Part shown: in pieces, positions 38,899-61,551 of the stretch
How positions within the stretch are numbered: position 1 is the stretch's first letter
How the letters are laid out: the number at the start of each line of letters is the position of its first letter
From: an uncultured Actinomycetes bacterium
Lineage (GTDB): Bacteria; Actinomycetota; Thermoleophilia; UBA2241
Direction: 5' to 3'
NCBI GenBank assembly: GCA_963755025.1
Contig: CAVWIH010000013.1
Span: 1-64,000, forward strand
DNA: 64,000 bases
Made by a program: the position numbers and the translations under genes
Notes under the pieces: generated by a model
Databases searched by the model: none
What the model saw: only the letters and a program-made list of their open reading frames with translations
What the model was told of the DNA's origin: nothing

Positions 38899-39016
38899 CT
38901 ATTGGCGCCGAATGCGCCGAAGCGAGCCCACTGCCGCCGACCCCGGCTCCGCATCTTCCCTGCAAAGAGCCGATATCCGCCGAGATGGGCCGACAGCCGC
39001 CGATGGCTCGATGAAA

Positions 39017-39047
39017 TCGCTGGTTCGATTCCAGCCGGGGGCGCCAG
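39017..39047 (+). repeat. att repeat (tRNA-Arg 3' end) at the element 1/2 junction
   Basis: identical to 2230-2260. Confidence 0.95.
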
Positions 39048-39238
39048 AAATACCTGCTCAGGGCTGTTTCCTATTGTGCGGTTCGCGCACGATACTTCCG
39101 AAGCGGCAGAACTGCCGACATTTTGCCGACGAGACTCCTAGTAATGCGTCGGCATGGCGCAGTATCCCTGAGCACGAATCGCTGATGCAGCCTCCGCATG
39201 TGACTCACCTGTTGTCCGAGGCGTAGGCTGACCGAGTC

Positions 39239-39583
39239 ATGGCCTTCAACGAACTTGAGCTGAAGCGCATCGACCACTCGGTCGGTGACCTGTGCCGGCG
39301 ATGCTCGCCTCCAGAGCACGCCGACGAGCTCCGCGTCGTCTGCCGTATCGACGGCCACGCTGTGAGCATCTACGAGGAACGGCCGCCATGGCGTGGCAGC
39401 GGCCCCTGGACAAGCCACGGCATCGCCCGCTTTCGCTTCTCCCGCGCCCAAGGCACCTGGTCGCTCTTCTGGATGCGCCAGGACCTGAAGTGGCACCGCT
39501 ATGAGCCCGAACCGCCGTCGCCAGATCTGGCCACGCTGGTCGCTGTCATCGAAGCCGAAGAGTTCGGCGCGTTCTTCGGGTAG
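39239..39583 (+). CDS. DUF3024-like protein
   Basis: IYEERPPW, IARFRF, WSLFWMRQDLKWHRYEP, GAFFG. Confidence 0.85.
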   Translation: MAFNELELKRIDHSVGDLCRRCSPPEHADELRVVCRIDGHAVSIYEERPPWRGSGPWTSHGIARFRFSRAQGTWSLFWMRQDLKWHRYEPEPPSPDLATLVAVIEAEEFGAFFG

Positions 39584-39679
39584 TCTGGCGGCAAGCTCGG
39601 CGGGCGATCTCGATCGACGTGTTGGGCAGCGCCGCCGCCTGGCGATCGTCCACACGAGATCCCATGGAGAGAGGATGCT

Positions 39680-39892
39680 GTGAGTCCGGCTTGGTTTGGA
39701 CGAAGGCGCAACGGTTGGAACTTCCGGCCGGCCTCCTGGCAGGGGTGGGCGGTGACCGCGCTCTACGGTCTGCTTATCTACGTGGCTGCACGCGCCTTCA
39801 GAGTGCATCACACAGTGCTCTTCATCGCCGCGCTGCTCGTGCTTACGGTGGCGTTCGGCGTCGTTGCTGTGGCCACCAGCCGCAGCCGCTAG
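39680..39892 (+). CDS. small two-TM membrane protein
   Basis: WFGRRRNGWNFRPASWQGW plus hydrophobic helices; paralog at 42499. Confidence 0.75.
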   Translation: MSPAWFGRRRNGWNFRPASWQGWAVTALYGLLIYVAARAFRVHHTVLFIAALLVLTVAFGVVAVATSRSR

Positions 39893-39987
39893 GAACCCAG
39901 GCGCCTGGACTGCGGCCTTCGGTATACAGCTTCACGGAACTTGCCGCCGGCTACCTTCGTGGCACTCTTAGACCACGGAGGGGGTAC

Positions 39988-40401
39988 ATGGCGTTCATCG
40001 ACAAGACCATCGCTGTGACGGCAGACGTGCGCGACGTCTACGATGCCTGGGCGGCCTTCGAGCACTATCCGAAGTTCATGAAGACTGTCGAGGCGGTGAC
40101 GCTCGTCGAGGAGGACCAGCTGCACTGGGTCGCCGTGATCGAAGAGGACACCGTTGAGTGGGACGCCGACTTAGTCGAGCATGTGGTCGACGAGAAGATC
40201 GCCTGGCGGGCCATCGACGGCCGTGAGACCGGTGAGGTGCGCTTCGAGAAGCTCGCCGCAGGCAAGACGATGGTCACCTACCAGCTTGAGTACGACCCGG
40301 CGGCCTGGGAAGGCGAACCCGACGCCGTGCGCCGCTGGATGAACCGCCGGGTCGACAGGGACCTCGATGCGTTCAAGAACATGGTAGAGGCCGCCGAATA
40401 G
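39988..40401 (+). CDS. SRPBCC/polyketide-cyclase family protein
   Basis: VYDAWAAFEHYPKFM, IAWRA, DLDAFK. Confidence 0.88.
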   Translation: MAFIDKTIAVTADVRDVYDAWAAFEHYPKFMKTVEAVTLVEEDQLHWVAVIEEDTVEWDADLVEHVVDEKIAWRAIDGRETGEVRFEKLAAGKTMVTYQLEYDPAAWEGEPDAVRRWMNRRVDRDLDAFKNMVEAAE

Positions 40402-40951
40402 GGAGCAGAAGCCCGTTCGCCGACCGAACGATTAAACGGGCAGTCGAGGAGCCACGACATGAGTCACACAGACCTTGCGGTAGCTGTGGCCGGGATCCTG
40501 ATCGCGGTCGGCTCCGTCGTGCTTGGCGCGTGGCTTGACCTGCGGCCATCAAGAGGCCGCGACAGGGAAGATCGCTAGCTCGACCAGCGCCGGATCGTCG
40601 TCTGGGCGACTCGACCAACGGATGCCGTCAGGACGACGCTGGGCCACCATGGATCCGCACCCGGAGCTCCCCTCCTCGGTGCCACGCCCTCGGACCCGGC
40701 AACGATCGCGAGGGCATCTTCGCGCGCAGGGGGCCGCCAGCCAGAGCCGGGACGGCCTCTGTTCTTTTCGAGGGGGCAGCGCCCGTTGCACCGTCAAGTC
40801 GTTGCCAGCGCCGGTGATGCTTTCTGGCGGCCGCACCTTGTCACGGGCTCGCCAGCTGCCGAAAGCAAGTGCTGACGCGGTGCGCCGTGGCGCGCCGCGT
40901 CAGCCTCTCCCCGAGGCGCGGACTTGCGGCAGCGAAGCGATGGAGGTCTTC

Positions 40952-42260
40952 ATGAAACGGTCGATTGTCGTCCTGGCGGTGGCTCTGGCATGTCTGCTTT
41001 TGGCTCCCGTCGCGCTCGCCCAAAGCCGCGTCGGTTGCGACCCCGGCGGCAGCACCGGCTTCCACGCCTGCGGTACCGTATCGAGCGTCGACGTCGCAGA
41101 CAACCTGCTCACCCTCAACGTCACGGCCGGCTCCGCTGGCCTTCCCAGCCCCCTCACAGTGGCCATCACTCCCGACACGCAGATCAGCGGCGAAACACCC
41201 ATCGCCCCGCAGGCTTCGCCTGCACTGGGTTGCGGCGACAACACGGTCACCCTCGATCAGGTCGCAATCGGCGAGCAGATCCGCGTCGGCGGCACGATCG
41301 ATGCAAGCTCTGGCACGCCGGTCTACGATGCGCTGCGCATCAGCGTGCATCAGCCGCGCTTTTCCTGCCAGGGCACAGTGAGCGCCGTCGATGTCACCGA
41401 CGGCCTGCTGACAGTCGACTTCACCAATGGCTCAGACGATCTCGTCAGTCCCCTCATCGGTGACCATCACCGCCGACACGCAGATCACCGCCGATGCGGC
41501 GTCTGTCGCCCAGCCCTGCTCAGCCCTTGGCTGCGCCGACAACACGATCACCTTAGACCAAGTCATGGTCGGCGAGCAGGTCTCAGTCCGCGGTACGATC
41601 GACGCAAGCTCCGGCACGCCGGCCTACGACGCCCTGCGCGTCCGCGTGCATCAGCCGCGCTTCTTCTGCGAGGGTGCGGTCAGCGCCATCGACACCACGA
41701 ACAACATCCTCACAGTGGACGTGGCGCACGGCTCGGCCGGGCTTACCGGCACGATCGCGCTTACCATCACGCCCGACACGCGCCTGTTCTCGTTTGCCGA
41801 CTTCGCCTGCAGCCAGCTCGACCTGAGCCAGGTCGCCGTAGGCGACCAGGTGGCAGTCTGCGGCGTGATCGACGCAAGCTCCGGCACACCGGTCTACGAC
41901 GCGCGCGTGGTCTTCGACTGCGGCGCGATCACCTTGCCAGCTCCCGCCAGCCAGCCGACCGCGCTGTCGACGGGGGCAAAGAGCGTGACCCGGGGCAAGA
42001 GCCTCAAGGTCCACCTTCGCATCAGCGACGCCATGCCGGGCTCCTCGACGGCCAGCGTCTCGGTCGCCGTCGTCAATGCAAAAGGCGCGAAGGTCGCCGC
42101 AGGGACGGTCAGTGGCGTGGCGCTCAACAAAGCAGTCACCCTCTCCCTGAAGCTGCGCAAGAGCCTCATTCGCGGTACCTACCGCGTCGTCACCAAGGCG
42201 ACCGACGACGCCGGTAACCGTCAGCTGCGCGCCGGCAGCGCGGTACTGAGAGTGCACTGA
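40952..42260 (+). CDS. secreted protein with three OB-fold-like (DUF5666-like) repeats and C-terminal Ig-like domain, frameshift near 41450
   Basis: signal peptide; three GTIDASSGTPxYDA repeats. Confidence 0.8.
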
Positions 42261-42336
42261 TCACAGCCGCCTTGCGGCGGCAGGGCAGTAGCGTCATGTG
42301 GCGAGGGCGGTGTCAGGTTACTTGGCGCCGCCCTCG

Positions 42337-42401
42337 CTAGTTGCGAACAAGCCTCGCGATCAGCGCTGCCGTTTCTGCCTGCATCGCCGGGATGGCGTGC
42401 G
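42337..42401 (-). repeat. degenerate copy of integrase-2 3' end (D)
   Basis: 24-bp exact match cctgcatcgccgggatggcgtgcg; reads HAIPAMQAETAALIARLV. Confidence 0.9.
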
Positions 42402-42498
42402 CACGTCACAGTGGCACTCAGGCCATACGGCAGGAGACCGTTCGCGCCAGTGGAATAGACGCGGAGACGAGCATCACTCCTGTTCGGAGCGTTCCCGC

Positions 42499-42783
42499 AT
42501 GCCACACGATCAGCCTCACATAGCAGATTCCGCGGCCACGGACCGCCGCGAAGCGAAGGCTCCCGGCTGGCTCGGCACGCCCTGGTTCGCCCGCCGGAGG
42601 CTGGGCTGGGGCTACCGCCCGGCGAGCTGGCAGGGCTGGGCGCTGACCGTGCTGTTCGTCCTATTTGTCTTCTCGGCCAACGGCATGCTGCGGACCCATC
42701 ACGTCGATCTCTTCGCGGGCAGCCTGGTCGCGCTCTGCGTCGCCTACATTGGGGTGGCGGCGATGACGAGTCGCGCGTTGTAG
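42499..42783 (+). CDS. small two-TM membrane protein
   Basis: WFARRRLGWGYRPASWQGW; paralog of 39680. Confidence 0.75.
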   Translation: MPHDQPHIADSAATDRREAKAPGWLGTPWFARRRLGWGYRPASWQGWALTVLFVLFVFSANGMLRTHHVDLFAGSLVALCVAYIGVAAMTSRAL

Positions 42784-42796
42784 TTGCCCCGAGGCG

Positions 42797-43330
42797 ATGC
42801 GCAGGCCGTCGCTCATACTGGTTATCTCCGTCGTCGGGGGCTGGGCTTTCGGCCTGCTCGACTCGCGCATCCCAATGCCGAGCAGTTCGACTGTCTTCTG
42901 GACCGGCAACCTGGGCGCTCCCTGGCTCGTGCTGCCCTTTCTGGCCGGCTGGACCCAGCCCTCCAGACGGCGGGCTCTCCTGGGAGGGGCGCTCACCTGC
43001 GTCGCCGCTATGGTCGGCTTCTTCGGTCCGGGATCGGGCTGGGGACCGGCGTCCATCGCCTTCGTCGCCGGCTGGATTGCAGCCGGTGCGCTCGCCGGCG
43101 GGCTCTATGGTCGGTTCGGGTTCGCCTGGGGCCGCTCGCGGGCGCTGCCGGAAGGTCTGGCTCTGGCCGTGCCCTTCATTCTCGAGCCGCTGGCCTGGTC
43201 GTGGGGTTTCGGCTACTCGCAGGGCCGCCTGCCCATCTGGTATGCCGAACTGGCCTTCGGTCTGGCGCTCCTGGTCTGGGTGGTCGCGTCGAGCCGTGGT
43301 TCCTCGTCGAGCAAGACCGCGGAGCGCTGA
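42797..43330 (+). CDS. multi-TM protein (DUF6518-like)
   Basis: GNLGAPWLVLPFLAGW and several TM helices. Confidence 0.7.
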   Translation: MRRPSLILVISVVGGWAFGLLDSRIPMPSSSTVFWTGNLGAPWLVLPFLAGWTQPSRRRALLGGALTCVAAMVGFFGPGSGWGPASIAFVAGWIAAGALAGGLYGRFGFAWGRSRALPEGLALAVPFILEPLAWSWGFGYSQGRLPIWYAELAFGLALLVWVVASSRGSSSSKTAER

Positions 43331-43364
43331 GTTCGCTTCTCGGGTTGCGGGTGCCGCTTGACCG

Positions 43365-43400
43365 GCGAACGCCGCCATGGCGACTGCGCTCTCCTCTTCC
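43365..43400 (-). repeat. highly degenerate copy of integrase-2 3' end (E)
   Basis: gcgaac..gcga..gcgc..cctcttcc blocks in the expected order and position. Confidence 0.4.
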
Positions 43401-43529
43401 GACAACTCCCTGGAGCGCAACGTGTGCTGGCACGCGGCTTGGCCACGAGCGTATGCTTCGTGACGGCTTCGGCGTGCCTGGTTGCCTTCGCCGGACCACG
43501 GAAGGCGCCTGCGACCTGGGGGTTGTGTC

Positions 43530-45470
43530 ATGAGGAAGGTCCTGATCTGTCTCGCGCTCGTTTCCCTCTCCTTCCTTGCTTGGGCAGGAGCCGCCTCTGC
43601 CGCAACTTCCCGGCCGTCCGGCACCGTGGCCGTCGCTGCGCAACTGAGGAGCACGGTGCCGGTGACTTTCCTCTCTGACAACTTCGAGGGCGGGCAGAGG
43701 TGGGACCCCCGCTTCTCTGGCTGGATGATCACAACCGACCAGGCATACAGTCCAAGCCACTCGGTCCACGCTGCGGAGTACGGCTCGCCGATGCTGGTCT
43801 ACGGGCCGTTTGATCTCAGCCAGGCGACCGCCGCTACCCTTTCTTTCGAACTGTGGTACGACTCGCCCACGCTCACCAGCCCGCCGAGCTCGACGACCTG
43901 CGGCGCGTTTCTGACCGGCTACTCGACAGACGGTTCGCATTTCACCTTCCCGACACAATGGAGCGGCTCCACGGGGGGCACCTGGCAGGCGCAACGAGTC
44001 GACCTGGGCAGCTGGTACGACCAGGCAAACCAGGCCACGGTCAGCCTGCTCGGCGACGCCAAGGTCTGGATCGCCCTCTCAAGCTCGGTCACCTCGGACC
44101 TTGCCAGCTCCACCGAGGGGAGCTACGTCGACGACCTGACTCTGAGCGCCACCGTCGCCGACACAACGCCACCTACGACCAGCGTCGCCGGCTTGCCCGA
44201 CGGCTGGACGAACCAGCCGGTCACCCTCAGCTTCACGGCCACCGACAACGGCGGCGGCTCCGGTGTCGCCTACACCGAGTATTCGACCGACGCCGGAAAG
44301 GACTGGACCGAGGGCACCTCCCTCGTTGTCGCAGCGCCCGCCGACCACACGGGCGACGGCGTGCACGCCGTCCTCTATCGGTCCGTCGACAACGCCGGCA
44401 ACATAGAGACCGCCAAGAGCTGCTACGTGAGGATCGACACCCGGCGGCCGACTACGAAGGCGCCCGATCAGGCCTATGTCGCCCATGGCGAGACGGTCCG
44501 TCTGAAGTACACGGTCGCAGACCCGCGCCCGGGAAGCCCGACGGCCGACGTTGTGATCGCGGTCAAAAACAGCGCCGGCACGGTGGTCAAGACGCTCACG
44601 CGCAGTGCGATAGCGGTGAACAAGCCGCTCACGGTCAGCCTTGCGGTGCCGCACGCCTGGAAGCCGGGTGCCTACCGGTTCACGGTCTCGGCCACTGACC
44701 AGGCCGGCAACGGGCAGACCGTTCCTGCAGGCAAGAACAAGCTGACCGTCAGGCTGACCGACCAGGAGCTGGCGACGATCCTCGCAGGCAGGCTTGCCCG
44801 CCACACGGGCCATCTGGCCGTCGGCGTCCTTGACTGCACGAGCGGCGCCAGGGTCCTCTACAACGGCGGAGGCAGCTTCCACACGGCCAGCATCGTCAAG
44901 GCCGACATCCTGGCGACCCTCATGCTGCAGCATCAGACCGCCCGGCGCGCGCTCACCACAGCAGAGAAGGCGCTGGCCACGCGCATGATCGAAGACAGCG
45001 ACAACGCCGCCGCCACCGCGCTGTGGAACGACGTCGGTGGGGCGTCCGGCGTTGCCAGGGCAAACGTCCGCCTGGGCCTGCGCCATACCGTCATGAGTGT
45101 CGCTTGGGGTCTGACCGGCACGACGGCAAGCGATCAGCTGACGCTGCTGTCCGACCTCGTCTCAGTGCGCTCTCCCCTGAGTGCCGCCTCGCGGTCCTAT
45201 GAGCTCGGCCTGATGCGCCACGTCGAGCCCGGTCAGGCATGGGGTGTGACTGCGGCGGCGACGCCGGGAACGCCTTCTGCGGTCAAGAACGGCTGGCTCC
45301 CCGACCCGAACCTTTGGGTGATCAACAGCATCGGCGTGATCCACAACTCGGGACACGTGCTGCTCGTGGCCGTGCTTTCCAACGACCAGCCCGGCGAGGT
45401 CAGCGGCATCGCTCAGGATGAAGCAGCCGCGCTTAGCGCGGTACACGTGGCCACCGCGCTCGATCCCTGA
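43530..45470 (+). CDS. secreted protein: beta-sandwich and Ig-like domains plus class A beta-lactamase-like serine hydrolase
   Basis: signal peptide; SIVK (SxxK), SDN, KNG. Confidence 0.85.
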   Translation: MRKVLICLALVSLSFLAWAGAASAATSRPSGTVAVAAQLRSTVPVTFLSDNFEGGQRWDPRFSGWMITTDQAYSPSHSVHAAEYGSPMLVYGPFDLSQATAATLSFELWYDSPTLTSPPSSTTCGAFLTGYSTDGSHFTFPTQWSGSTGGTWQAQRVDLGSWYDQANQATVSLLGDAKVWIALSSSVTSDLASSTEGSYVDDLTLSATVADTTPPTTSVAGLPDGWTNQPVTLSFTATDNGGGSGVAYTEYSTDAGKDWTEGTSLVVAAPADHTGDGVHAVLYRSVDNAGNIETAKSCYVRIDTRRPTTKAPDQAYVAHGETVRLKYTVADPRPGSPTADVVIAVKNSAGTVVKTLTRSAIAVNKPLTVSLAVPHAWKPGAYRFTVSATDQAGNGQTVPAGKNKLTVRLTDQELATILAGRLARHTGHLAVGVLDCTSGARVLYNGGGSFHTASIVKADILATLMLQHQTARRALTTAEKALATRMIEDSDNAAATALWNDVGGASGVARANVRLGLRHTVMSVAWGLTGTTASDQLTLLSDLVSVRSPLSAASRSYELGLMRHVEPGQAWGVTAAATPGTPSAVKNGWLPDPNLWVINSIGVIHNSGHVLLVAVLSNDQPGEVSGIAQDEAAALSAVHVATALDP

Positions 45471-45531
45471 ACCGCATCAGTTTCACCGTCGATGGTGGGC
45501 GTTGGATGTCACCCTGCCGTCTCGTCTGCCC

Positions 45532-45593
45532 GCGAACACCGGCCCCGCGATTGCCTGAGCGGGCTCTTCCTGCATTCGCCGCGATGGTGTGAG
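45532..45593 (-). repeat. degenerate copy of integrase-2 3' end (C)
   Basis: reads HTIAA/MQEEPAQAIAGPVFA. Confidence 0.8.
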
Positions 45594-45622
45594 GTTGCCT
45601 ACGGTCGGTTGGTGAATGAAAC

Positions 45623-45665
45623 TTGCGGCGCAAGGGTATGACTGCTACCATGCGTCACATGGCAG
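45623..45665 (+). promoter_or_regulatory. probable leaderless promoter with PadR-type operator
   Basis: TTGCGG-N17-TACCAT; imperfect palindrome ctaccatg-cgtca-catggcag over the start. Confidence 0.55.
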
Positions 45666-46015
45666 TCGACTCCCAACGACGAACAGAGCTCCTCCGCGGC
45701 GTCCTCGATCTCTGCCTGCTGGCTGTGGTGAACGAGGGGCCGGCCTACGGCTACGAGATGACCAAGCGGCTGCGCGAGCGCGGCCTGGCGATCGTCGGCG
45801 AGGGGTCCATCTACCCGTTGCTGGGACGGCTGGAGCGCGACGGCCTGGTCGAGACCTATCGGGCTCCAAGCAACGGAGGACCGATGCGCAAGTCCTACCG
45901 GCCCTCCGCCGCGGGTCGACTCGCGCTGGCGATGGGCGTGTCCGAATGGCGAGCCGCCCGCGACGCCGTCGACGGCGTGCTCGCCTCTGTCAAGGTCGAG
46001 GTGCTTCATGACTGA
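45659..46015 (+). CDS. PadR-family regulator
   Basis: LLRGVLDLCLL, YGYEM, EGSIYPLLGRLE. Confidence 0.93.
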   Translation: MAVDSQRRTELLRGVLDLCLLAVVNEGPAYGYEMTKRLRERGLAIVGEGSIYPLLGRLERDGLVETYRAPSNGGPMRKSYRPSAAGRLALAMGVSEWRAARDAVDGVLASVKVEVLHD

Positions 46016-46547
46016 CTACGTCGGGCGCTGCCGCGCCGAGTGGCGCCGTCTCGCTGTCCCCGATGCGCTCGCCGAGGAGATGGCGGCCGACCTGGCCTCC
46101 GACCTCTCAGAGGCCGAGGCCGACGGGATCTCGGCCGAGGAACTCTGGGGAAGCGATGCACGTTCGTTTGCGGCCTCCCTGGCCGCCGAGCGCGGCATCA
46201 TCCCGGCGCCGCTCAGCCCAGCGAAGACCCGCCGCAGGCCGCTCGTCTTGGTGGCCTTCACCGTCATCGCCGCGCTCGTGCTGATCTTCGCGGCACGGGC
46301 GCTCCTGACAGGGCAGCCCAAGGCGACACTCGTCGCCAACGTGTCCGGAACGCCGGGACATCACCTGCCATCAGCAACGCCGTTCCCCTTCGCACCACCC
46401 GGCGGGGCCCAGCGCGTCTTCGACCTCGGCAACCTGGCCGCCCCGATCGAGTGGATCCTGCTCGTCTTCGCGATCGTCGCGCTCGGCTTCGCCCTCTGGT
46501 TGTGGTCGAGTTGGGCCCGCTCGCGACCGCCCAGCATGCCAGTCTAG
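46008..46547 (+). CDS. PadR-associated membrane protein
   Basis: helical N-terminus (ELWGSDARSFA) plus two TM; overlaps padR. Confidence 0.8.
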   Translation: MTDYVGRCRAEWRRLAVPDALAEEMAADLASDLSEAEADGISAEELWGSDARSFAASLAAERGIIPAPLSPAKTRRRPLVLVAFTVIAALVLIFAARALLTGQPKATLVANVSGTPGHHLPSATPFPFAPPGGAQRVFDLGNLAAPIEWILLVFAIVALGFALWLWSSWARSRPPSMPV

Positions 46548-46587
46548 CCAGCTTTCGCGGCCGTTCGCTGCGGACCTGAGTTTGCGG

Positions 46588-46702
46588 CTACTTGGCAAAC
46601 ACGAGCCCCGCGATCAGCGCCGCCGCCTCCTCCTGCGTCGCGGGGACGGGGTGCAAGGAGGGGTCGAGGGTGATGCCAGTGTGACGTCCTGAGGCGCTCT
46701 CG
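46588..46702 (-). repeat. degenerate copy of integrase-2 3' end (B)
   Basis: 32-bp exact match aacacgagccccgcgatcagcgccgccgcctc; reads ITLDPSLHPVPATQEEAAALIAGLVFAK*. Confidence 0.95.
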
Positions 46703-46760
46703 CCACAAGGTGCAGACCGCCGTGCACGAGGCTTCCACAGAGCGCTATCATGGGCAGCAG

Positions 46761-47726
46761 ATGGCTGTGCCAGAGCAAGACGACACGATCACTCCAGAAG
46801 ACTACGCGTGGAAGTGGGCCTGGCTGGACGGTCCGGCTCCTTTTGACGGCGATGTGGCAGTTCTCGAGGAGCTCTGCTTCGCCCTCGCCGAGCGACCCCA
46901 GGCCGTCTTGGCTTGCGGCGAGTGGCGCTGTCTGCTGCAGCGCAAGGAGAGTCCGACGCCAGCCGGGCTGCTGCGCCACTACGAGCTCGGCTTCTTCGTG
47001 CGCGCAAGGGCGCCTCACGCCGGCGAGAGCCTGACGGCGCCCGCCCCGCTCGTCACATCGGCCTCGCTTTTGGCGGACGGCTCCGATACCGCGCGGCGTG
47101 CCGCTCAGAGCGCCGTCGCCGTTCTCCTTCGGCAGGTCGCAGCGACCCTCGACTGCAAGGCTCCTGCGCCCGTCGCCATGAGGCCTCAAGGTGCGGTCGC
47201 AAACGAGCGCGTGGCCACGGCCAGAAGCCGAGGCCGACTGGTCCCCGTGCTCGTTGCCGCAGCGATCGTCGTCGCCTGTCTGTTCGGCCTGCGGGCCTTC
47301 GTTCTTGGCCCCTACCTAGTCCCGCCAAGCTCGCAGGCCAGCCCGCTGCAGCACAGTCGTCGCGTGCTCGTCGACCGCGCCGTCTACCATCTGCGGCCGG
47401 TGGGCCGCGGTAATCTGGTCGTGCTGCGCGACCCGGATGCTCACAACGAGCTTGAGATCCGCAAGGTGGTCGCCTTGCCGGACGACCTGATCGTGCTGCG
47501 CGCCGGTCGGCTGCTGGTCGACGGGGCAGCCATCGCCCGAGACCAAGCCCAGGGCGGGTCTGCGACGGGGGTGGCGCCGTTCGACTCTTGGCGGCTTTCC
47601 GCAGGTAGTTACGCTGTAGCCGTTCTGCACGACGGCGCGGCCACCTCGCTGGAGATCGTGCCACGCCGGGCGATCGTGGGCGAACTCCTTCTCACCTTCT
47701 GGCCTCCGCCGCACCTTCCGTTCTAG
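46761..47726 (+). CDS. unknown N-terminal domain fused to degenerate S26 signal-peptidase-like domain
   Basis: RAFVLGPYLVP, RVLVDR, IRKVVALPDD, AIVG..FWP. Confidence 0.7.
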   Translation: MAVPEQDDTITPEDYAWKWAWLDGPAPFDGDVAVLEELCFALAERPQAVLACGEWRCLLQRKESPTPAGLLRHYELGFFVRARAPHAGESLTAPAPLVTSASLLADGSDTARRAAQSAVAVLLRQVAATLDCKAPAPVAMRPQGAVANERVATARSRGRLVPVLVAAAIVVACLFGLRAFVLGPYLVPPSSQASPLQHSRRVLVDRAVYHLRPVGRGNLVVLRDPDAHNELEIRKVVALPDDLIVLRAGRLLVDGAAIARDQAQGGSATGVAPFDSWRLSAGSYAVAVLHDGAATSLEIVPRRAIVGELLLTFWPPPHLPF

Positions 47727-47767
47727 GATGCCGAAGGCAGGCTGCCCGCCTTCCCCGGCATCTTGTC

Positions 47768-47827
47768 TGCAAAGATCGACCCCGCAATGAGCGACCCGCC
47801 TCCTCTTGCATCGCCGGGGTGGCGTGC
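47768..47827 (-). repeat. degenerate copy of integrase-2 3' end (A)
   Basis: reads HATPAMQEEA/SLIAGSIFA. Confidence 0.85.
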
Positions 47828-47886
47828 CGCGGCGACGTCTGCTGGTGCTGGCCGCGCCTCATCAAACTGCTCGACCGCAGGAAACG

Positions 47887-48066
47887 ATGCTGGATGACCC
47901 TAGGGCGCAGTCGGCCGTCGATCGAGTGGCAGAAGCCCTGGCTGAAAGAAGGACGCTGAGCATGCTTGAGGTGCTCGGGCTGCCGGCGGTCGAGCATCTC
48001 GTCGGTTCCGAAACGATGTGCTCCATGTCGGCGAGCTGGCTGTACGGATGGCATGGGGCAGGATGA
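47887..48066 (+). pseudogene. short ORF or gene remnant
   Basis: 59-aa ORF between repeat A and the integrase end. Confidence 0.3.
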
Positions 48067-48089
48067 GGGGCCATCGCGAAGGCCAGGAG

Positions 48090-49328
48090 CTACCTTGCGA
48101 ACACGAGCCCCGCGATCAGCGCCGCCGCCTCTTCCTGCATCGCCGGGATGGCGTGCGAGTAGGTGTCGAGCGTTATCGACACGGTGGCGTGGCCAAGGGG
48201 CTCGGAGACGGCCTTGGGATGGACGCCGGCCTGCAGGGCGAGGGTGGCGTGGGTGTGGCGCAGGTCGTGCAGTCGGATCGTGGGCAGCATCGACTTCCTG
48301 ACGGCTTGGCGGAACCAGCGCGTCACGGCCTCGGGGTTGAGGTGCTGGCCGTCTTCGGCGGTGAAGACGTAACCAGAGTCGGTCCAGCCTTCCTGCCGCT
48401 GCGCCTGCTCGTCGAGCTGGCGGGCGGCTTGCCTTTCAGCACCGAGACGGTCTCGGCGTCGAGGGCGATCGAGCGCCGGCCCCGAGCCGTCTTGGGCTCG
48501 GAGACCACGACCTCGCGCCCCGAGGGGATGAGGGCGCGACGAACGGAGAGCCGTCCGGCCTCAAGGTCGAGGTCGTCCCAGCGCAGACCGAGAGCCTCGC
48601 CGCGGCGCATGCCGGTCATGGCGAGCACATGCCAGAGGTCGTGGAGCCTCTCGTCTGCGGTCGCCTTCAGGAACCCCCCGAGCTGCTCAGCCGTCCAGGT
48701 CTTCATCTCGCGGCGCTCGGTGCCGCGCTGATGAGGCGGGTCCGCTGCGTCGACGGGGTTGCGCTGCAGGTAGCCCCAGCGCGCGGCGTCGCGAAAGGCG
48801 CGGTGCAGGCAGGCGTGAACGTGGTGGATGGTGGCGGGGGAGAGGCCGCGGTTGCCGTTCTTGCGGCCCGACTCGGCGAGCTTCGCGTAAAGCCCGTTCA
48901 GGGTGGCGCCGGTGACTTTCTGCAACTTCACGGTGCCGATGAAGGGCACGACGTGGCAGACGACGTGCTGGACGTAGGAGTTGTAGGTCGAGTCCCGGAT
49001 CGTCGACTTGGCTGCCGGTAACCACTCGTTCTTGAGGTACTCTTTGACCGTGGCCTTGGTGGGCGCCACGTAGGTCTGCTCCTCGACCGCGACCATGAGC
49101 TTGTTCATGGCGGCGAGGCACTCCTTGCGGGTCGCGAAGCCGCCCTTGATGGCGCGCCGGCGCTCCTCGGTATCGTTGAGCTCGCCGGCGCACTTCGGAC
49201 AGGACTCCGCGCTGCTTGCGTTCCACCCAGAACCGTCCGTTGCAGGTCGTGCACCGCTGGGCGGCGGCCACGCCGACGTCGACGTTGTACTCCCAGCTCT
49301 CACCACGACGGCGGATGGAGCCCCTCAT
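48090..49328 (-). CDS. tyrosine integrase of element 2, several frameshifts
   Basis: MRGSIRRRG.., CTTC..CPKC, TGMRRGEALGL, HDLRH, LGH, DTYSH over three frames. Confidence 0.92.
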
Positions 49329-50452
49329 GGTGTGGCCTCCTTCTCTCTGCCGCGTTCCTCTTGGCGTGAGGTGGCCTGTAGATAGCTCGAGCGAATCGCG
49401 CGCGGGTTGCCGTGGGGGTGCTGCGGGTACAGCTCGTTCCAGTGCGCGAGTAACTGGCCCCAGCTGGGCAAACGCGCTCCCGGCGCCGGCTGGCGACGCT
49501 CGCGGGCCACGAAGCGCACAAGCTCTGCCGACCAGATCGTCTGACGTGCGGAGGGATCGGTCGGAAGCCCGTAGTCGCGGTTGCGCGCCCGGCGGTAGAT
49601 GGAGGCCACTTCATCCGGTGATATCAGCCCTGAGCTCACCGTGATCACGTAGCGGCGCGATACGTCTGACGGGCACGTCGGCTCGCCTTCGGGATCTCGT
49701 GCGAACTCGACGAGCGAGGGGTAGGAGGTGACGAGCAGGGTCGAGGGCAGCTCGGGGCGGATGTCGGCAAGGAGCCATTCCACGGCCTCGCTCTCGCGGC
49801 ACCCCGATGCCCCTGCCAAGTGGCGCGCGAGATCGCGGAGATTGCGCAGCGGATAGCAACTCGCCGGGAAAGGCAGAGCGACGTCCTCGCCCGTGAGCCC
49901 GCGCCAGAGCAACACCTCCGCACCGCCCGAGTCGCCCTGAGCGGCGATGTATTCGGCGAGCCACCAGGATGCCGCTTCGCGGTCCATGAGCGGCTCAAGT
50001 TCCTCGTCGGTGCCGTCCGCCTCGAGGGCGCGCGTATCGCCGGTCAGCCATGCCCAGGCGGCTCGACGGGTCGACGGCGCGCCGGGGTTGATTGGCCGCA
50101 GCGCGAGCTTGAGACGGGCGTCGTCGCGCAGCCAGGTGAAGCCCAAAAGCACGCGTCCGAGGTGACCCTCTAGGTAGGCGCGCCACTGCGGCCCGGCAAG
50201 CGCCGAGTCCCCTGGCGGCTGCTCGGCGCGGGGCTCGTTGCGCAAGGTGCGGCGTTTCCTCGGGCTGAAGGTCGCACGTCCCTCCGCGACGTCACCAACG
50301 GCATCGACGAAATCCCGCGCATCGAGCTCCTCCAGGGGCTGCCCGTTCTTGTCCTCCAGCCAGGTGAGCTCCACGTCCGTGAGGCGGCCCTCACCTCGCG
50401 CGGCCAGGGCCTGATCGAAGCGGCTTCGCGCTGCCTTCTTCTCGTCTGCCAT
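49325..50452 (-). CDS. putative regulator coupled to the integrase
   Basis: ATGA overlap; same position as 6313-6967 in element 1. Confidence 0.65.
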   Translation of the reverse strand: MADEKKAARSRFDQALAARGEGRLTDVELTWLEDKNGQPLEELDARDFVDAVGDVAEGRATFSPRKRRTLRNEPRAEQPPGDSALAGPQWRAYLEGHLGRVLLGFTWLRDDARLKLALRPINPGAPSTRRAAWAWLTGDTRALEADGTDEELEPLMDREAASWWLAEYIAAQGDSGGAEVLLWRGLTGEDVALPFPASCYPLRNLRDLARHLAGASGCRESEAVEWLLADIRPELPSTLLVTSYPSLVEFARDPEGEPTCPSDVSRRYVITVSSGLISPDEVASIYRRARNRDYGLPTDPSARQTIWSAELVRFVARERRQPAPGARLPSWGQLLAHWNELYPQHPHGNPRAIRSSYLQATSRQEERGREKEATP

Positions 50453-50464
50453 GACATAACTCCA

Positions 50465-50695
50465 GTGAGACAATGCGTAAGTATAGTGGCACCATACATT
50501 AAGGTCGATGACGACGAGTTGCGCTCCTACCTTCGCGCTCACCACGTCGTGTCGAAGTGGCCGTTCACAGGCAAGGCGCTGTCACTGAGTCGTTCCACAA
50601 CCTTTGCGTGCAGGGACATCCCGACGCTGCGCCTCGGCCACCTCCTGAAGGTGCGCTCTGCCTGGCTCGATCAGACGCTGTTCGGCGCCGAGTGA
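50465..50695 (+). CDS. excisionase-like small protein (start uncertain)
   Basis: DIPTLRLGHLLKVR resembles the xis wing; divergent from regulator. Confidence 0.45.
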   Translation: MRQCVSIVAPYIKVDDDELRSYLRAHHVVSKWPFTGKALSLSRSTTFACRDIPTLRLGHLLKVRSAWLDQTLFGAE

Positions 50696-51063
50696 TCGTG
50701 GACGAGGCAGTCCTTGACCCCTGCCAGTTTGCAGCGCGCTTTCGAGCGATTGTGCCGCTTACGCAGGAGCGCGAGCTCGACGTGCGCCATGCGGAGTTCC
50801 AACGGCAGATGTACCGACGCGTCGCCGAGAGCCTGCCCGACATGAGCATCACCGCCGCGATGGCGCGTTTGGCAGAGGAGATCGCGGTGCTGCCTCGAGC
50901 CGAACAGTTGCGCCTCCGCCTGCAAAAGGTAGCCGTGCTCGAAGGGCTCGGCTACGCAAACGCCGAGGAGCTAGTGGAGGCCGCTCTGACGCTTGCCGAC
51001 CAACTCGGCGAGCAGGCGGTCTCGATACTTTGCTCGGCGGGGGGCCATCGTCGTGGCCACTGA
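50692..51063 (+). CDS. hypothetical protein
   Basis: GTGA-coupled ORF in core operon. Confidence 0.5.
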   Translation: MIVDEAVLDPCQFAARFRAIVPLTQERELDVRHAEFQRQMYRRVAESLPDMSITAAMARLAEEIAVLPRAEQLRLRLQKVAVLEGLGYANAEELVEAALTLADQLGEQAVSILCSAGGHRRGH

Positions 51064-52070
51064 ACCCACATCCGACAGACCGTGCCCGCACTCGTACTCT
51101 GGTCCCGAGATCGCCCTGATGGTGTTCCCCCCGTCGATCCTGTGGTCCATTACGCTAAGCGGGGCTCGATCTTCGATCTGGTCGGCCAATCCAAGAAGGG
51201 CAAGACCACCTTCACGCTGCTCGCCTGCCGGGCCGTGCTCGCCGGCGAGCCCTTCCTCGGCACGCAGACCACGCGCGTCCCGGTGCTGTACCTGACCGAG
51301 CAGACGCGACCCAGCTTCCACGACAAGCTCGAGAGCGTCGGGTCCCTCCTCGAGCAGTCCGATTTCCGCGTACTGTTCATCGCCGACGCCACGGGCCTGG
51401 CCTGGCCCGAGATCTGCGAGATCGTACGCGCGGAGGTGCGCCGCCACGGCGTCGGTCTGGTCTACATCGACACGCTTACCGACTGGGCCCGCATCGAGAA
51501 TGAAAACGATGCCGCCCAGGCGCTGGCCGTGATGCGCCCACTTCGCCAGATCGCCGAGGATGGCGTGGCCGTGGTCACCGTCCGCCACTCTGGTAAGGGC
51601 AACCACGACGAGCAGGACGTGATCGACGCGGGCCGCGGCTCCTCGGCCTTCGCCGGCGTCGTTGACACGCTCTGCGTGATGGGCGCCGTGAGGGGCCAGG
51701 GCCACGCTAACCGACGCCAGCTTCGCCTGGTGAGCCGCAAGGACGGCATCCCCGCCTCGCTCACTGTCGAGCTCGAGGCGGGCGAGTATCGCTGCCTCGG
51801 CGACCGTGCCGACGTCGAGTGTTACTTGGCCAAGGAGGTTGCCCTCGACAATCTTCCCGATCGCTAGAGCAGGCCTGGACCGAGCAGCAGATCCTCAAGG
51901 CGGCTGGCAAGGCGTTATCGCGCTCGACGCTCAAGCGCGCCCTCACTGACCTCATGCGCGAGGGCTGCGTCTTCGGCAAGAAGGGCGCCGGTGCCGCGAG
52001 CGCCAAGGCCATCGGCTACTGGCTCAGTGACGGCCCGGGAGAACAGATGGGGCTCGGTCGTAATGAATAG
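51053..52070 (+). CDS. RecA-like AAA ATPase/helicase with C-terminal wHTH, frameshifted
   Basis: GQSKKGKTT, YLTE, YIDTL, RHSGK, GRGSSAFAGVVD. Confidence 0.8.
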
Positions 52071-52604
52071 CCTCCCCGCGACGCCTCTGCCGGCGGCCGG
52101 CCGCCAACTGTCCATATATAGAGAACTAGTACTGGACAGTTGCCGGCCCGGTGTCTTCCTTGACTCTCGGTTGGCTGCCCGGCCCCCGGCCGAAGGCCTT
52201 GGGGGCCGGGACAGCAGACACTCGAAAGCAGTCAAGGCCCTCAATGAGCGGTGGGGCCGGGCAAGCAGAGCGTCGTCGTGAGCCAAGTCCCGCCGGGCCG
52301 CTGGCAGGCCTTCACCGCCGTCGCCGCATTCTCGAGGACTGAAAAGGTGCTTGTGGTCTGCGAGTCACAGACGGTGCGCCGCCAGTATGAGCGCGCCGTT
52401 CTCAGACTCGGCGGCAACCTCGACAACGTGATCTTCCGCGTCGTCCCGGGTGTGTCCGCAACCAGGACTACGTCCTGAGCGTCTTGCGCGAACGCGTCAT
52501 CGTCCAATCACGGCATCCACCGTCAGCCGATCGCGCCGAAACCAAGAGGCGTGCCGTCGATGCTCGTCGGATCACAGCTTTGCTCACTACCGAAAGGAGA
52601 TCTC

Positions 52605-53980
52605 ATGTCCGTTGAGTCCATCACCTTGGCGTCTATCGTCGTCGCCGGGCTTCACCGTAAGGAACTCGGCGACATCGAGGCGCTGGCCGCCTCGATCGAC
52701 GAGCTCGGCCTGCTGCAGCCGATCGGGGTGACGCCCGATCGACAGCTGCTCTTCGGCCGGCGCCGCCTCGAGGCTTGCCGACGGCTCGGCTGGGAGGAGC
52801 TTCTTGCGGTTGTGCTGCCCGATCTGGGCACGGCGGTAGATCGCCTGAAGGCCGAACGAGACGAGAACGTCTGTCGCAAGCAGATGACGCTGAGCGAGCT
52901 CATCGCTGTCGGCAGGCGGCTCGAGGAGATTGAAGAGCCGGAGGCACAGGCGAGGAAGCGGGCCGGCAAGGCCTTAGCGTCATTTGACGCCAAGGTCGGC
53001 AAGACCGACAACCTGGTGGCCGCCTGCCTCGGCATGAGTGAGCCGAACTACCGGCGGGCGAAGCGAGTCGTCGAGGCTGCCGAGAACGAGGCGGCCTCCG
53101 AGGACGTGCGCCGCGTCGCGCGGGAAGCCCGGGAGCGGATGGATGCGACCGGTCGAGTCTGGGGTTCCTTCCGCAAGGTGCGCGAGGCGAGCAGCGAGCC
53201 AACGGTGACCGGGCTAGCGATGAGACTTTCCCCCCGAACGGGGCTCAGCGCCACGGGCACAGTGACACGCCCGACCGCTTCGTAGCGCGCATCGTCAGGC
53301 AGCTGGGCCCCGTCCTTGACGCCGCCGGTGTCTCGAGTCTCGAACTTGGTGGTTACGAGGCGACAGAAGAGCAGCTGGCGACGATCGCAAAGGCGATCAC
53401 TCTGCTGCAGGCGCTGCGGCGGCGGTTGACAGGGGCGACCGGCACGCCCGAGGCCGAGACGGATGCCGATACCGAGCCCGATACCGAGCCCGATCTCGGG
53501 TCTTCGCCGAATCTAGACGCAGGCGCTGCTGCCACCGTTGCGACCACGTCTGCGACGCCGGTCAGCGACGTGCGGGCCGTGACCAGTGCCACGGGCGGCG
53601 AGATTGGCGCAACGACGCCCATCCAACCGACTGCCGAGGCCGCTCCTGCGCTCTACCCCCGCGATGAATTCGAGCGGTCGCTGCTGCAGTCCGCGGCCGA
53701 TCAAGCGGCCGAGAGGGCCGTCCTCGGTGCCGATGAACTGGCGGCCGCGCTCTTTATGCCCCGTGCTCGCGCGGAACGCTTGCTTGAGATGCTGAGCGGT
53801 GCCGGGATCTGTGAGAACGAGGGCCAACGCCGTCGGGTGATCGTCGACCCTGAAGCCGTGAACGCGAAGCTGACCGTGTATCTGGACCGGGCGAACAGCG
53901 AACTCGTCGCGAACGGCCCGCAGTCTACGGCCCTCGTGGAGGACCGCCAGCGCGGCACCGTCGAAGGACGGCAGCTATGA
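52605..53980 (+). CDS. ParB-like protein, probably continuing across a frameshift into an FtsK-gamma-like domain
   Basis: LAASIDELGLLQPI..GRRRL..ENVCRK; C-terminal RARAERLLEMLSGAGI..RRVIV. Confidence 0.7.
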
Positions 53981-55299: not shown

Positions 55300-55687
55300 A
55301 TGACCGTGCGCACAGGACAGGGCCGCAAGCGCAGCCTGGCGATCGCCGCCCTGCTTAACTTCCCGACGATCGCCTACGCCGCCCAGAGTGCTGGCATCAG
55401 CGAGTCCACTTTGTCTCGCTGGCTGCGCGAGGAGAGCGTCGTTACCGAGTATCGCCTGGCGCAGCGCGAGGCCCTGCGCCAGGCGATCGCCACCCTGCAG
55501 GCCGCAGCCGGCTCGGCGGTCACCGTGCTGCGCGCCGCCATGCTTGACCAAAGCGCCACGTGCGCCTCGCGGGTGGCCGCGGCGCGCGTCGTGTTGGAGT
55601 TCTCCTTCCGCGGCGCCGAGATCACCGACCTCGAGGAACGTCTCGCCAGCGGCGCCGACGGCGATCTCGACCTGTCGGCCCACCTAG
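55300..55687 (+). CDS. terminase-small-subunit-like HTH protein
   Basis: AAQSAGISESTLSRWL, RVAAARVVLE, DLEERL; after methylase. Confidence 0.6.
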
Positions 55688-61178: not shown

Positions 61179-61505
61179 GGTGTCCCCCCCAACTGGCTCG
61201 AATGCTGATGTCGATAGTACAGCCTTGCCGCTGGAAAGACAGAGCGCAGCCCAATAGCCAGACAACCAGCCATGGTGAACGACTGTGATGTCGTCATCAG
61301 GGGCGCCAACACCCCGATCGGCGGCAGAAAGCCGATAGTCATGAGCGCCAGCCGCTTGAAGTCGAGATTGCCGACACGATGCCGACAAGACGCATCGTCA
61401 CAGCCCGGCACGGCTCGATGCCTGTGAGCACCAGGCCACGCCAGAACCCTGGACTATGCAGCACAATCGCGTCCAGCCAAATACCGCCGGGCACTGTGAA
61501 GTCAC

Positions 61506-61551
61506 GTCTGCAAAACCTTAATCGCCGGTTCGACTCCGGCCGCCGCCTCCA
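61506..61551 (+). pseudogene. 3' half of tRNA-Cys(GCA), att-site remnant
   Basis: ctgcaaa anticodon loop, gccgg-ttcgact-ccggc T-arm, CCA; no 5' half. Confidence 0.85.

Follow-up and report, generated by a model that had tools for sequence, protein, structure and literature searches.

We have analyzed a 64,000-nucleotide stretch of DNA (the window) from an uncultured member of the Thermoleophilia, in which copies of the 3'-end of an integrase gene (tails) separate a series of cargo genes. The tails are probably the stumps of small elements that integrated serially at tRNA-Arg, from which the integrase body and the internal att copy were deleted and whose units were shuffled by recombination between tails. 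The arrays look like the leftover stumps of tRNA-anchored islands of a known type and not like a new integron-like cassette system. As a whole, the window is best read, with somewhat better than even confidence, as a set of tandem integrative elements that target the 3'-half of tRNA-Arg(CCT).

Results

Integrase Tails and Cargo Units in the Window

The 3'-end of integrase 2 (48090-48176) was found by repeat search, blastn, and nhmmer to be repeated directly in the window. All of the copies share the orientation of integrase 2 (minus strand) and correspond to the last 60-110 nt of the gene. The E-values given below are from an nhmmer search of the window alone.

42340-42401, minus strand: tail 4, integrase 3'-stump (nhmmer E = 1e-12; blastn); its 5'-start is the His codon after Tyr-Ser
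43365-43440, minus strand: possible very degenerate stump, below nhmmer detection; unit boundary from comparison only
45528-45592, minus strand: tail 3, hybrid integrase stump (nhmmer E = 1.5e-6; three-way alignments)
46588-46699, minus strand: tail 2, integrase 3'-stump up to the ITLD codons (nhmmer E = 2e-20; blastn)
47760-47827, minus strand: tail 1, integrase 3'-stump (nhmmer E = 1.5e-11; blastn)
61604-61649, minus strand: weak integrase stump (nhmmer E = 0.06), preceding a short-chain dehydrogenase fragment
62321-62374, minus strand: degenerate integrase stump (nhmmer E = 4e-6, and 2e-4 in a separate nhmmer search; sequence read), abutting the start of a GGDEF gene

The original prediction, made from the sequence, of degenerate same-strand copies at about 42340, 45528, 46588, and 47760 was confirmed by all three methods. 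A 27-nt core pattern with up to 3 mismatches is found at 3 places in the window and at none in 100 shuffles. The tails had been placed some 35-80 bp after the stop codons of plus-strand cargo genes, and the measured gaps are 80, 58, 41, and 34 nt for the tails at 42340, 45528, 46588, and 47760, respectively. The tail at 47760-47827 is followed by 262 nt with no open reading frame. The copy that extends furthest upstream, and is the longest orphan tail of the window, is that at 46588-46699 and not the one at 45532 as proposed. The weak copy proposed at 43365 was undetected by nhmmer in the window even at E ≤ 50. Comparison with other sequences suggests a unit boundary near this position: the flanking units are 49 kb apart in the related genome G010, and one contig from public run X4 departs at 43366. 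The tails at 61604-61649 and 62321-62374, on the opposite side of integrase 2 from the array, are additions to the original prediction, as is the tRNA-Arg context described below. The cargo units are as follows.

39239-39583, plus strand: DUF3024 protein (Pfam), cargo adjoining the att site
39680-39892, plus strand: small membrane protein, cargo adjoining the att site
40003-40401, plus strand: SRPBCC protein (Pfam), cargo adjoining the att site
about 40952-42260, plus strand: secreted repeat protein, in cargo block 39239-42260
42499-43330, plus strand: unit of a small membrane protein and a DUF6518 membrane protein (Pfam)
43482-45470, plus strand: 662-aa protein with Big_13 and Beta-lactamase2 domains (Pfam)
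45623-46547, plus strand: PadR regulator and membrane-anchored partner (Pfam)
46710-47726, plus strand: 338-aa protein with a Peptidase_S26 domain (Pfam)
61747-62283: short-chain dehydrogenase (SDR) fragment (Pfam)
62383-63438: GGDEF gene

Integrases, tRNA-Arg Fragments, and att Sites

Fragments of tRNA-Arg(CCT) and two paralogous integrase genes define two elements in the window.

2212-2259, plus strand: 3'-half of tRNA-Arg(CCT), anticodon stem-loop to CCA; left att of element 1 (nhmmer E = 9e-7; sequence read)
4988-6274, minus strand: integrase 1, intact, 428 aa, paralogue of integrase 2 (Pfam Phage_integrase and Phage_int_SAM_3; tblastn)
39016-39160, plus strand: T-arm/acceptor fragment of tRNA-Arg (39016-39046) with a conserved arm of about 110 nt; left att of element 2 (nhmmer E = 1.9e-45; sequence read)
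48090-49340, minus strand: integrase 2, tyrosine recombinase (tblastn alignment; open reading frames)
49325-55283: element 2 backbone (Pfam), including a 406-aa protein with no family assigned
51082-51867: AAA_25 (Pfam), element 2 backbone
52551-53285: ParB_N-like (Pfam), element 2 backbone
54360-55283: N6_N4 DNA methylase (Pfam), element 2 backbone
61521-61577, plus strand: diverged tRNA T-arm/acceptor fragment with the start of the arm; right att of element 2 (nhmmer E = 7e-6; sequence read)

The array had been described as a cassette array with no attC sites. It was found to sit inside element 2, between the tRNA-Arg(CCT) fragments at 39016 and 61521, and the arm is conserved in 8 aligned copies from 5 genomes. 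The fragment at 2212-2259 agrees with the full tRNA-Arg(CCT) of relatives, and a P-arm-like flank at 61440-61520 is similar to the flank left of 2212. There is no full tRNA-Arg(CCT) gene within the window; one is present at a contig start in this genome (G000:C14:616-691), and others were located by ARAGORN at the heads of arrays in G004:C47, G007:C22, and G014:C1.

In relatives, tRNA fragments alternate with tail clusters (15 fragments and 62 tails in 8 stretches), with interleaved fragment copies in G010, G014, and G003. The tails are opposite in strand to the tRNA fragment in 35 of the 36 sequences that contain both, some of which overlap in origin. In this family the integrase gene points to the att site, with the cargo between att and the stop codon of the integrase gene. 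In G003 and G010, 100-500 nt separate the start of the integrase gene from the next tRNA fragment, and the distance between integrase 1 and the att copy at 2212 is about 2.7 kb. At locus L089, an integrase fragment whose first profile position is 88 directly adjoins a truncated att arm that begins at arm position 82; this junction is the integrase-to-arm deletion that is predicted if the tails are stumps. The decay of tandem whole elements, each tail accompanied by att remains, had been named as the finding that would speak against the cassette proposal. This is largely what was observed, although not fully, as att remnants persist near only about a quarter of the tails.

Integrase 2 is 59% identical (tblastn) to an intact integrase of the same family in this genome (C22:22523-23830) and is spread over three frames in the assembly, with shifts near 49208 and 48428 that are due either to pseudogene formation or to assembly indel errors. 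Only the generic Pfam domains Phage_integrase and Phage_int_SAM_3 were identified in these proteins. Orphan tails are confined to the integrase 2 subfamily: none were found for integrase 1 and the paralogues on C16, C11, C33, and C24, and a search with the tail of integrase 1 matched only the other family at about 70% identity. Conjugation genes are absent from the element of the window. The element 2 backbone gave DNA matches of only 65-68% in 5 of 25 other genomes, and mapping of the element ends through a shared backbone was given up on this account.

Contigs from four public runs (short Logan contigs) list no tail-to-tail joint, and these contigs are too short for junctions. Of the 485 loose contig ends in the public runs, two fall at 43366 and 48097, and these prove little. 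A joint that appeared to go back 5756 was an artefact of the query stretch having been cut at 42401.

Tail Family in Thermoleophilia

The tail repeat is present in 33 of 41 related genomes of uncultured Thermoleophilia, one of which contains about 30 copies in 100 kb. The predicted unit of cargo gene plus integrase tail is real and family-wide. The tails were compared using a profile of 493 positions that covers the last ~480 nt of the integrase gene. There are 175 distinct copies, of which 48 run past the 5'-end of the profile and 127 are truncated. The 3'-ends pile up at profile positions 470-490, and the 5'-ends are scattered between position 18 and about 425 without forming a sharp class. 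Approximately 55% of the truncated copies begin at positions 360-425, and these retain the last ~60-125 nt of the gene. A sharp class of "minimal" tails that might mark a crossover was considered and rejected; the bin at 414-419 has 10 copies compared with 4-9 in neighboring bins, and the 5'-ends are spread about evenly over 360-425. The smeared 5'-ends and the 3'-end fixed at the integrase stop codon are as expected of deletion stumps. In the stumps, the codon for the catalytic Tyr is relaxed (0.94 bits at the middle base versus 2.0 in full genes).

The units between tails are compact and lack an integrase. The median distance between tails is 1005 nt, and the gene is antisense to the tail in 52 of the 68 units with a called open reading frame. 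Lone tails at L017, L019, and L020 were considered as naive target sites and set aside, L017 being an internally deleted integrase.

Linkage of Cargo to Stumps and Recombination between Tails

The units recur in other genomes with other neighbors and in another order. At G010:C3:116628-118386 a homologue of the DUF6518 unit occurs by itself, and the SDR unit forms a unit of its own at G007:C22:25011-26682. Cargo block 39239-42260 is, from 39987 on, 96% identical to G004:C47. The PadR unit, present in three genomes, has counterparts in G007 and G010 with 85% identity over about 1050 nt and unrelated left neighbors. The beta-lactamase-like unit comes before PadR in this genome (G000) and after PadR in G010. 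Near-identical units (97-98%) are found at two places in the G014 array, and their order differs.

Two cargo genes were also found to be linked to their own integrase stump across genomes, and this argues against pure cassette exchange, which would break the linkage. In both G004 and G010, the same stump comes after the beta-lactamase-like gene, with a CAAC variant in common and a continuing integrase fragment. For PadR, the integrase allele that follows is shared between G007, where it is a stump, and G010, where it is at full length with a 13-kb backbone.

The tail at 45528-45592 is a hybrid in which the 3' ~22 nt go with the beta-lactamase-like unit and the 5'-part goes with the PadR unit. 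The crossover in this tail lies in the last 22 nt or less of a much longer shared homology, and that in G014 copy 500425 lies in the last 15 nt or less of a similarly longer one. The location of both resolvable crossovers near the tail end corresponds to roughly p = 0.03 under uniform homologous exchange. An apparent junction at or beyond the 3'-edge of the tail, from comparison of G000 with G004, was rejected after three-way alignment with G010, as the G004 copy is merely mutated and the crossover is inside the tail. A pairwise screen for tails that share one flank was uninformative; integrase genes swamp the upstream side, and only 2 pairs share the downstream side alone.

It had been proposed that the array is fed serially by recombination inside the integrase gene, with each event supplying a new C-terminus. 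The recurrence of the units, their variable neighbors and order, and the crossover inside the tail at 45528-45592 support this proposal in part. A cassette array fed in this manner, with a supply of new C-termini, is unsupported, as tRNA-Arg fragments enclose the array, the stumps are of variable length with a fixed 3'-end, and the cargo keeps its own stump.

Discussion

Proposed Origin of the Arrays

In the proposed sequence of events, a new element would integrate at the tRNA-type site beside a resident one. A single deletion may then take the integrase body of the newcomer together with its P arm and the internal att copy. This deletion would fuse the two elements and leave behind the cargo of the newcomer followed by the 3'-stump of its integrase, and repeated rounds would generate the sequence of cargo, stump, cargo, stump, and ultimately integrase. 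Later deletions would trim the stump from the 5'-side only, if neighboring genes are spared, and the fixed 3'-end with a ragged 5'-end would follow because further deletions can shorten only that side. Recombination between the stumps, which are direct repeats of 60-110 nt that are about 90% alike, could delete, duplicate, and reshuffle units. We infer the use of a tRNA-type site by this integrase from the architecture only, since no excision product and, among the relatives, no empty site was found.

Several of the observations do not sit easily with serial integration. The att fragments are about 4-fold rarer than the stumps, and nearly every fusion must therefore have lost att cleanly while keeping both flanking genes. 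The stump lengths are skewed toward short ones, which requires repeated erosion rather than one random deletion. The compact units and the strand bias look cassette-like, and the two resolvable crossovers, both close to the tail end, also count against this reading. Finally, the stump core (positions 421-465) is as close to the consensus (0.92-0.94) as it is in full genes (0.91), whereas upstream of the core the stumps have drifted (0.84 versus 0.88; n = 19 for the unbiased subset).

If serial integration is correct, these Thermoleophilia from soil and peat would show very clearly how a small integrative element collects cargo: newcomers land beside the element and lose their integrase and internal att, and islands of tens of kilobases result in which gene and stump alternate. 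The stumps could then be used as a marker to count integration events and to delimit accessory genes in an uncultured class. If the stumps are instead active sites, they would represent a second route to integron-like gene capture.

Alternative Explanations

It is possible, but unlikely, that the 3'-end of the integrase gene serves directly as a site of recombination and that integrase-less circles, each of one tail and one cargo gene, are cut out and put in at the edge of any tail by an integrase supplied in trans, the stumps having arisen once by deletion and moved as cassettes from then on. The reappearance of the PadR and beta-lactamase-like units, and of the near-identical units in G014, with different neighbors and order would be explained in this way, as would the ratio of one att fragment to about four tails, the compact, mostly single-gene units with their strand bias, and the crossovers within the final 15-22 nt of the tail in both of the resolvable cases; the intact integrase on C22 could act in trans. 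In a specific version, to which we give marginally less credence, a second recombination site would be formed by the final ~20 nt of the gene (…CTGGTGTTCGC, by the stop codon), and the array would be an attC-free platform inside a tRNA-targeting element. The family architecture, however, is that of a tRNA-targeting integrase with the att site beside its gene, and the tail shows no significant likeness to the tRNA or to the arm (its scores are reached by 1595 and 863 of 2000 shuffles). Conservation drops sharply right after GTGTTCGC, near the stop codon, and a conserved right half-site is absent. Folding of four tails as single-stranded DNA, with both strands used for one of the tails, gave no attC-like fold (z from +0.28 to +1.06, no better than shuffles). 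In the three PadR-linked tails the 3' 22 nt are preferentially conserved, which is not the general pattern of old stumps; in the most degenerate stumps this segment scores 0.74 compared with 0.86 for the rest. The 100-kb array of G014 has no integrase open reading frame that is free of stops or frameshifts, and the linkage of cargo to its own stump also points away from exchange of this kind.

A second alternative, which we regard as quite improbable, is that the tail is kept for a role as DNA or RNA, for example as part of an attP arm bound by the N-terminal domain of the integrase, or in terminating or insulating convergent genes, the orphans being by-products retained by selection. In L061, L068, and L047, only ~25-60 nt separate the end of the att arm from the 3'-edge of the tail, which could place the tail close enough to be reached by an arm. 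Conservation at third codon positions is somewhat higher in the tail (1.30 bits) than upstream of it (1.09 bits), and the core is undegraded in stumps. On the other hand, the tails form no stable fold, the codon periodicity of the gene is still present in the orphans, as it would be in recent fossils, and old stumps, for example those linked to PadR, decay at about the rate of their surroundings. The repeats could also have been produced by mis-assembly or mis-binning of metagenomes, given that this draft genome is 84% complete with 5% contamination, that several tail copies are at contig ends (C15, C21, and C24), and that single-base indels occur between the window and public contigs. This explanation is highly improbable: this architecture recurs in numerous assemblies made independently, contigs of 0.5-1 Mb among them, the units are covered by public contigs of four studies, and orthologous units are 81-96% identical between genomes. 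Serial integration at tRNA-Arg followed by decay of the integrase is the reading that we prefer.

Comparison with Known Systems

No description of integrase-tail arrays was found in the open-access literature searched. Integrons have attC hairpins and an IntI-type integrase with attI at its 5'-end; the cassettes are upstream of and divergent from the integrase gene and move as circles. On the surface the array is similar, with one integrase beside a one-directional series of mostly single-gene units and a repeated separator. Unlike in integrons, the repeat is a piece of coding sequence with no attC-like fold, the whole is enclosed by tRNA att sites, the array is located past the 3'-end of the integrase gene and antisense to it, and the Pfam domains are generic.

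The gene order in elements of the pSAM2 type is xis-int-attP, whereas here the cargo intervenes between att and the stop codon of the integrase gene, and conjugation genes are missing from the element in the window. Cis-mobilizable elements (CIMEs) are units without a recombinase that are flanked by att sites; here, integrase stumps lie on either side of most units, and the internal att copies are missing. The actinomycete elements pSAM2, SLP1, and pMEA300 (reviewed in PMC2440964) share the actinobacterial host, the tRNA target, and an int gene near att. The site-specific accretion of streptococcal ICEs and CIMEs (PMC7563491 and PMC5704250) is likewise comparable, with tandem elements at one att and repeat-flanked derivatives that have lost the recombination module and ride with a neighbor.

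In phage Mx8, attP is inside the int coding sequence and integration alters the 3'-end of int (PMC6070905). Together with the SSV-type integrases (PMC7253208), Mx8 is a precedent for a recombination site in the 3'-part of an integrase gene. The present family differs from both in that no tRNA-like or att-like sequence could be demonstrated in the tail and in having tRNA-type att copies outside of the reading frame. An Mx8-like att within the integrase tail was an early working idea that was dropped after the tRNA-Arg fragments were found and the tail proved to be unlike them.

The closest likeness is to tRNA-anchored islands. The tycheposon preprint (10.1101/2020.12.28.424599) describes fragmented integrases and partial tRNAs in such islands as the result of successive integrations. 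Relative to the tycheposon islands and to Islander-type tandem islands (PMC4383910), our arrays differ in that stumps outnumber tRNA fragments by ~4:1, in their regularity (up to about 30 stumps in 100 kb, with mostly single-gene units), in having at most one full-length integrase between two att copies, and in the host, an uncultured lineage of Thermoleophilia. What is shared with the Prochlorococcus tycheposon islands and the Islander-type islands is a tyrosine integrase, displaced 3'-fragments of a tRNA in the orientation of the tRNA, and the manner in which newcomers push older elements inward and leave fragmented integrases and partial tRNAs behind.

Results

Copies of the Integrase Tail in the Window

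The gene for integrase 2 (int2), a tyrosine recombinase on the minus strand, ends with its stop codon at 48090, and in this assembly its reading is split over three frames. By repeat search, blastn, and profile search, the last 60-110 nt of this gene were found to be repeated at four other positions, all on the minus strand. These copies, and the genes that precede them, are as follows.

Tail copies (with E values from the profile search of the window) and Pfam matches of the cargo genes found before tails
42340-42401, minus strand (as int2), tail copy, E 1e-12
45528-45592, minus strand (as int2), tail copy, E 1.5e-6
46588-46699, minus strand (as int2), tail copy, E 2e-20
47760-47827, minus strand (as int2), tail copy, E 1.5e-11
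plus strand, DUF5666/Big_13 repeat protein
plus strand, Big_13 and Beta-lactamase2 protein
plus strand, PadR regulator with a membrane-anchored partner
plus strand, Peptidase_S26-domain protein

The original prediction that copies of the int2 3' end lie shortly 3' of plus-strand cargo genes was borne out at these four places, where ORF calls put the tail start 34-80 nt after the gene stop; a weak copy claimed at 43365 was undetectable by profile search of the window. A 27-nt core of the tail was found at three places in the window with at most three mismatches, versus none in 100 shuffles. The profile search identified two extra copies past int2, at 62321-62374 and, weakly, at 61604-61649.

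Single-base indels between the window and contigs from public metagenomes are located at 45575, 45493, 45629, 62017, and 55099-55204. The base at 45575 is missing in the contigs of all four runs examined, and in runs X2 and X3 at only about half of the depth. Indel errors may be present in the draft, a point relevant to the int2 frameshifts.

Distribution and Anatomy of the Tails

Using a 96-nt query, the tail repeat was detected in 33 of 41 related genomes, the source genome included, and many of the 33 hold at least 10 copies among the matches listed (the best 22 per genome). In one relative, G014, 29 matches lie within a 100-kb stretch, 28 of them on the same strand and mostly spaced by 0.7-1.4 kb; the sole full-length integrase of this array has two internal stops. 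A degenerate 26-letter tail motif, searched against one genome per species, returned 72 stretches, 69 with titles from Thermoleophilia or another actinomycete group and 3 from other phyla. Adjacent tails are co-oriented in 122 of 127 pairs. Of 75 distinct short units (cargo plus tail; median 1005 nt), 52 had their best ORF on the strand opposite the tail, 16 had it on the strand of the tail, and 7 had no ORF, a tally that rests on a crude GC3-based ORF call.

The summed contig depth over the int2 tail (48090-48160) was 80-296 in three of the four public runs and 18-23 in X4, compared with about 1-8 in the flanking bins, which indicates a high copy number of the repeat in the communities sampled. 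A lone tail match of 40-60 nt with no adjoining integrase was observed at 1497-1536 of L019 (G022:C5) and at 1501-1561 of L020 (G006:C8), two loci extracted from related genomes; these matches may be final remnants.

Integrase sequence of 480 nt or more is retained by 48 of 175 distinct tail copies; the other 127 are truncated. The 3' ends bunch at profile positions 470-490, and the 5' ends are scattered from 18 to about 425 with no sharp class. Conservation stops just past GTGTTCGC, a few codons short of the stop codon; the conservation profile of the tails contained no conserved sequence or second half-site beyond this point. Folding of four tails gave no stable structure, and comparison of the tail with the tRNA and the arm described below gave no resemblance. 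The catalytic Tyr codon is relaxed in the truncated copies (stumps), and 18 of 22 long integrase matches are free of internal stops. Orphan tails are confined to the int2 subfamily; none were found for five other integrase paralogues of the source genome.

tRNA-Arg(CCT) Fragments and Element Boundaries

A search with the left flank as query revealed a second repeat, which alignment showed to consist of a tRNA-Arg(CCT) 3' part and, after it, a conserved arm of about 110 nt. ARAGORN and Rfam gave no matches across the whole window because the tRNA is present there only as fragments. From the positions of these fragments, the window was divided into two att-bounded elements in tandem, followed by relics.

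tRNA-Arg(CCT) fragments and elements in the window
2212-2259, fragment, anticodon-loop type
2259-39016, element 1, carries integrase 1
39016-39160, fragment with arm
39016-61521, element 2, carries the array and int2; backbone genes AAA_25, ParB_N-like, and DNA methylase
~61521, fragment, diverged form

Full tRNA-Arg(CCT) genes are found at the head of arrays in G004, G007, and G014, and at the start of contig C14 in the source genome. In 35 of 36 sequences with both features, some of which overlap in origin, every tail is on the strand opposite the tRNA fragment. Fragments alternate with tail clusters in G010, G014, and G003; 8 non-redundant stretches hold 15 tRNA fragments versus 62 tails.

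The segment of about 110 nt at 39047-39160 is conserved as strongly as the tRNA part in the copies from G003, G004, G007, and G010; it may represent either an att arm or, before the DUF3024 gene, a small RNA or regulatory sequence. The att fragment that closes element 2 on the right (61521-61577) has a T-arm (GCCGGTTCGACTCCGGC) unlike that of tRNA-Arg(CCT), as if this fragment came from another tRNA or a diverged att variant. Further tails and the intact tRNA-Arg(CCT) occur at contig ends of the source genome (C15:1210-2378, C21:933-1048, C24:75021-76274, and C14:62-691); the full island probably extends past the window and has been fragmented by its own repeats.

Within element 2, an IS of the rve family is located at 55684-56397. 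In contigs of all four public runs, 56424 is joined to 59350 on opposite strands, which suggests that other populations carry a ~2.9-kb inversion next to the end of the IS. The minus-strand ORF at 59151-61388 (745 aa) has BNR/PSII_BNR repeats and, at its C terminus, a match to the TacA1 antitoxin family. Because the inversion joint at 59350 separates these two parts, the fusion may be secondary.

Modular Units and Hybrid Tails

Units with 85% identity to the PadR unit (45525-46587) over about 1050 nt occur in G007 and G010, where their left neighbors are unrelated. In G010, 49 kb separates the beta-lactamase-like unit from the membrane pair, which adjoins it in the window. Contig G004:C47 is 96.4% identical to 39987-45551 and then wholly different in content. 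In both G004 and G010, the same stump comes after the beta-lactamase-like gene; after PadR, G007 and G010 share an integrase allele, present as a stump in G007 and at full length with a backbone in G010. Because the same allele or stump accompanies its cargo across genomes, we infer that the cargo and the integrase on its right were once one element.

The tail at 45528-45592 is a hybrid, with ~22 nt at the 3' end that carry on from the beta-lactamase-like unit, as they do in G010, and a 5' portion corresponding to the degenerate stump found alongside PadR in three genomes. G014 copy 500425 shares its upstream part and tail with copy 473077 and its downstream flank with copy 531034, with the crossover within the last ≤15 nt. 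In locus L089, a truncated att arm is fused to an integrase fragment. Paralogous small membrane proteins (motif RPASWQGWA) are encoded at 39680-39892 and 42499-42783, in separate units of one array, and their homologues adjoin tails in G003 and G004.

Discussion

The simplest account, which requires only known processes and which we hold with moderate confidence, is serial integration at a tRNA-type site followed by decay. Elements would integrate one after another, and a single deletion, which would begin inside the newcomer's integrase and take out its P arm together with the internal copy of att, would fuse the neighbors and leave cargo plus a 3' integrase stump. Later deletions would shorten the stump solely from its 5' side, unless they damaged a gene; with trimming tolerated only from that side, the 3' end would be fixed and the 5' end ragged. 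Units would then be reshuffled through recombination between stumps.

Four features are not well explained by serial integration and decay: there are four times as many stumps as att fragments, stump lengths are strongly skewed toward the short end, units are compact and strand-biased and mostly hold a single gene, and the two crossovers lie at the very end of shared homology. Together they keep alive an integron-like alternative in which the integrase would use the tail end as a second site, with units moving in trans. We consider this unlikely, since a second half-site is absent, the tail is unlike the tRNA core, old stumps do not preferentially conserve the tail end, and the largest array examined has no intact integrase.

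No description of integrase-tail arrays was found in a search of open-access article texts. The closest precedents for recombination inside the int gene, as originally predicted, are the integrases of Mx8 (PMC6070905) and of the SSV type (PMC7253208), which have attP within the integrase gene; this defining feature was tested for here, and comparison of the tail with the tRNA and the arm revealed no such site. The tycheposon preprint presents islands of this type, in which integrases are fragmented and tRNAs are partial (10.1101/2020.12.28.424599). The pattern is real and striking, and it most likely represents an ordinary process at unusual regularity, namely, a tRNA-anchored island shaped by tandem integration and decay.
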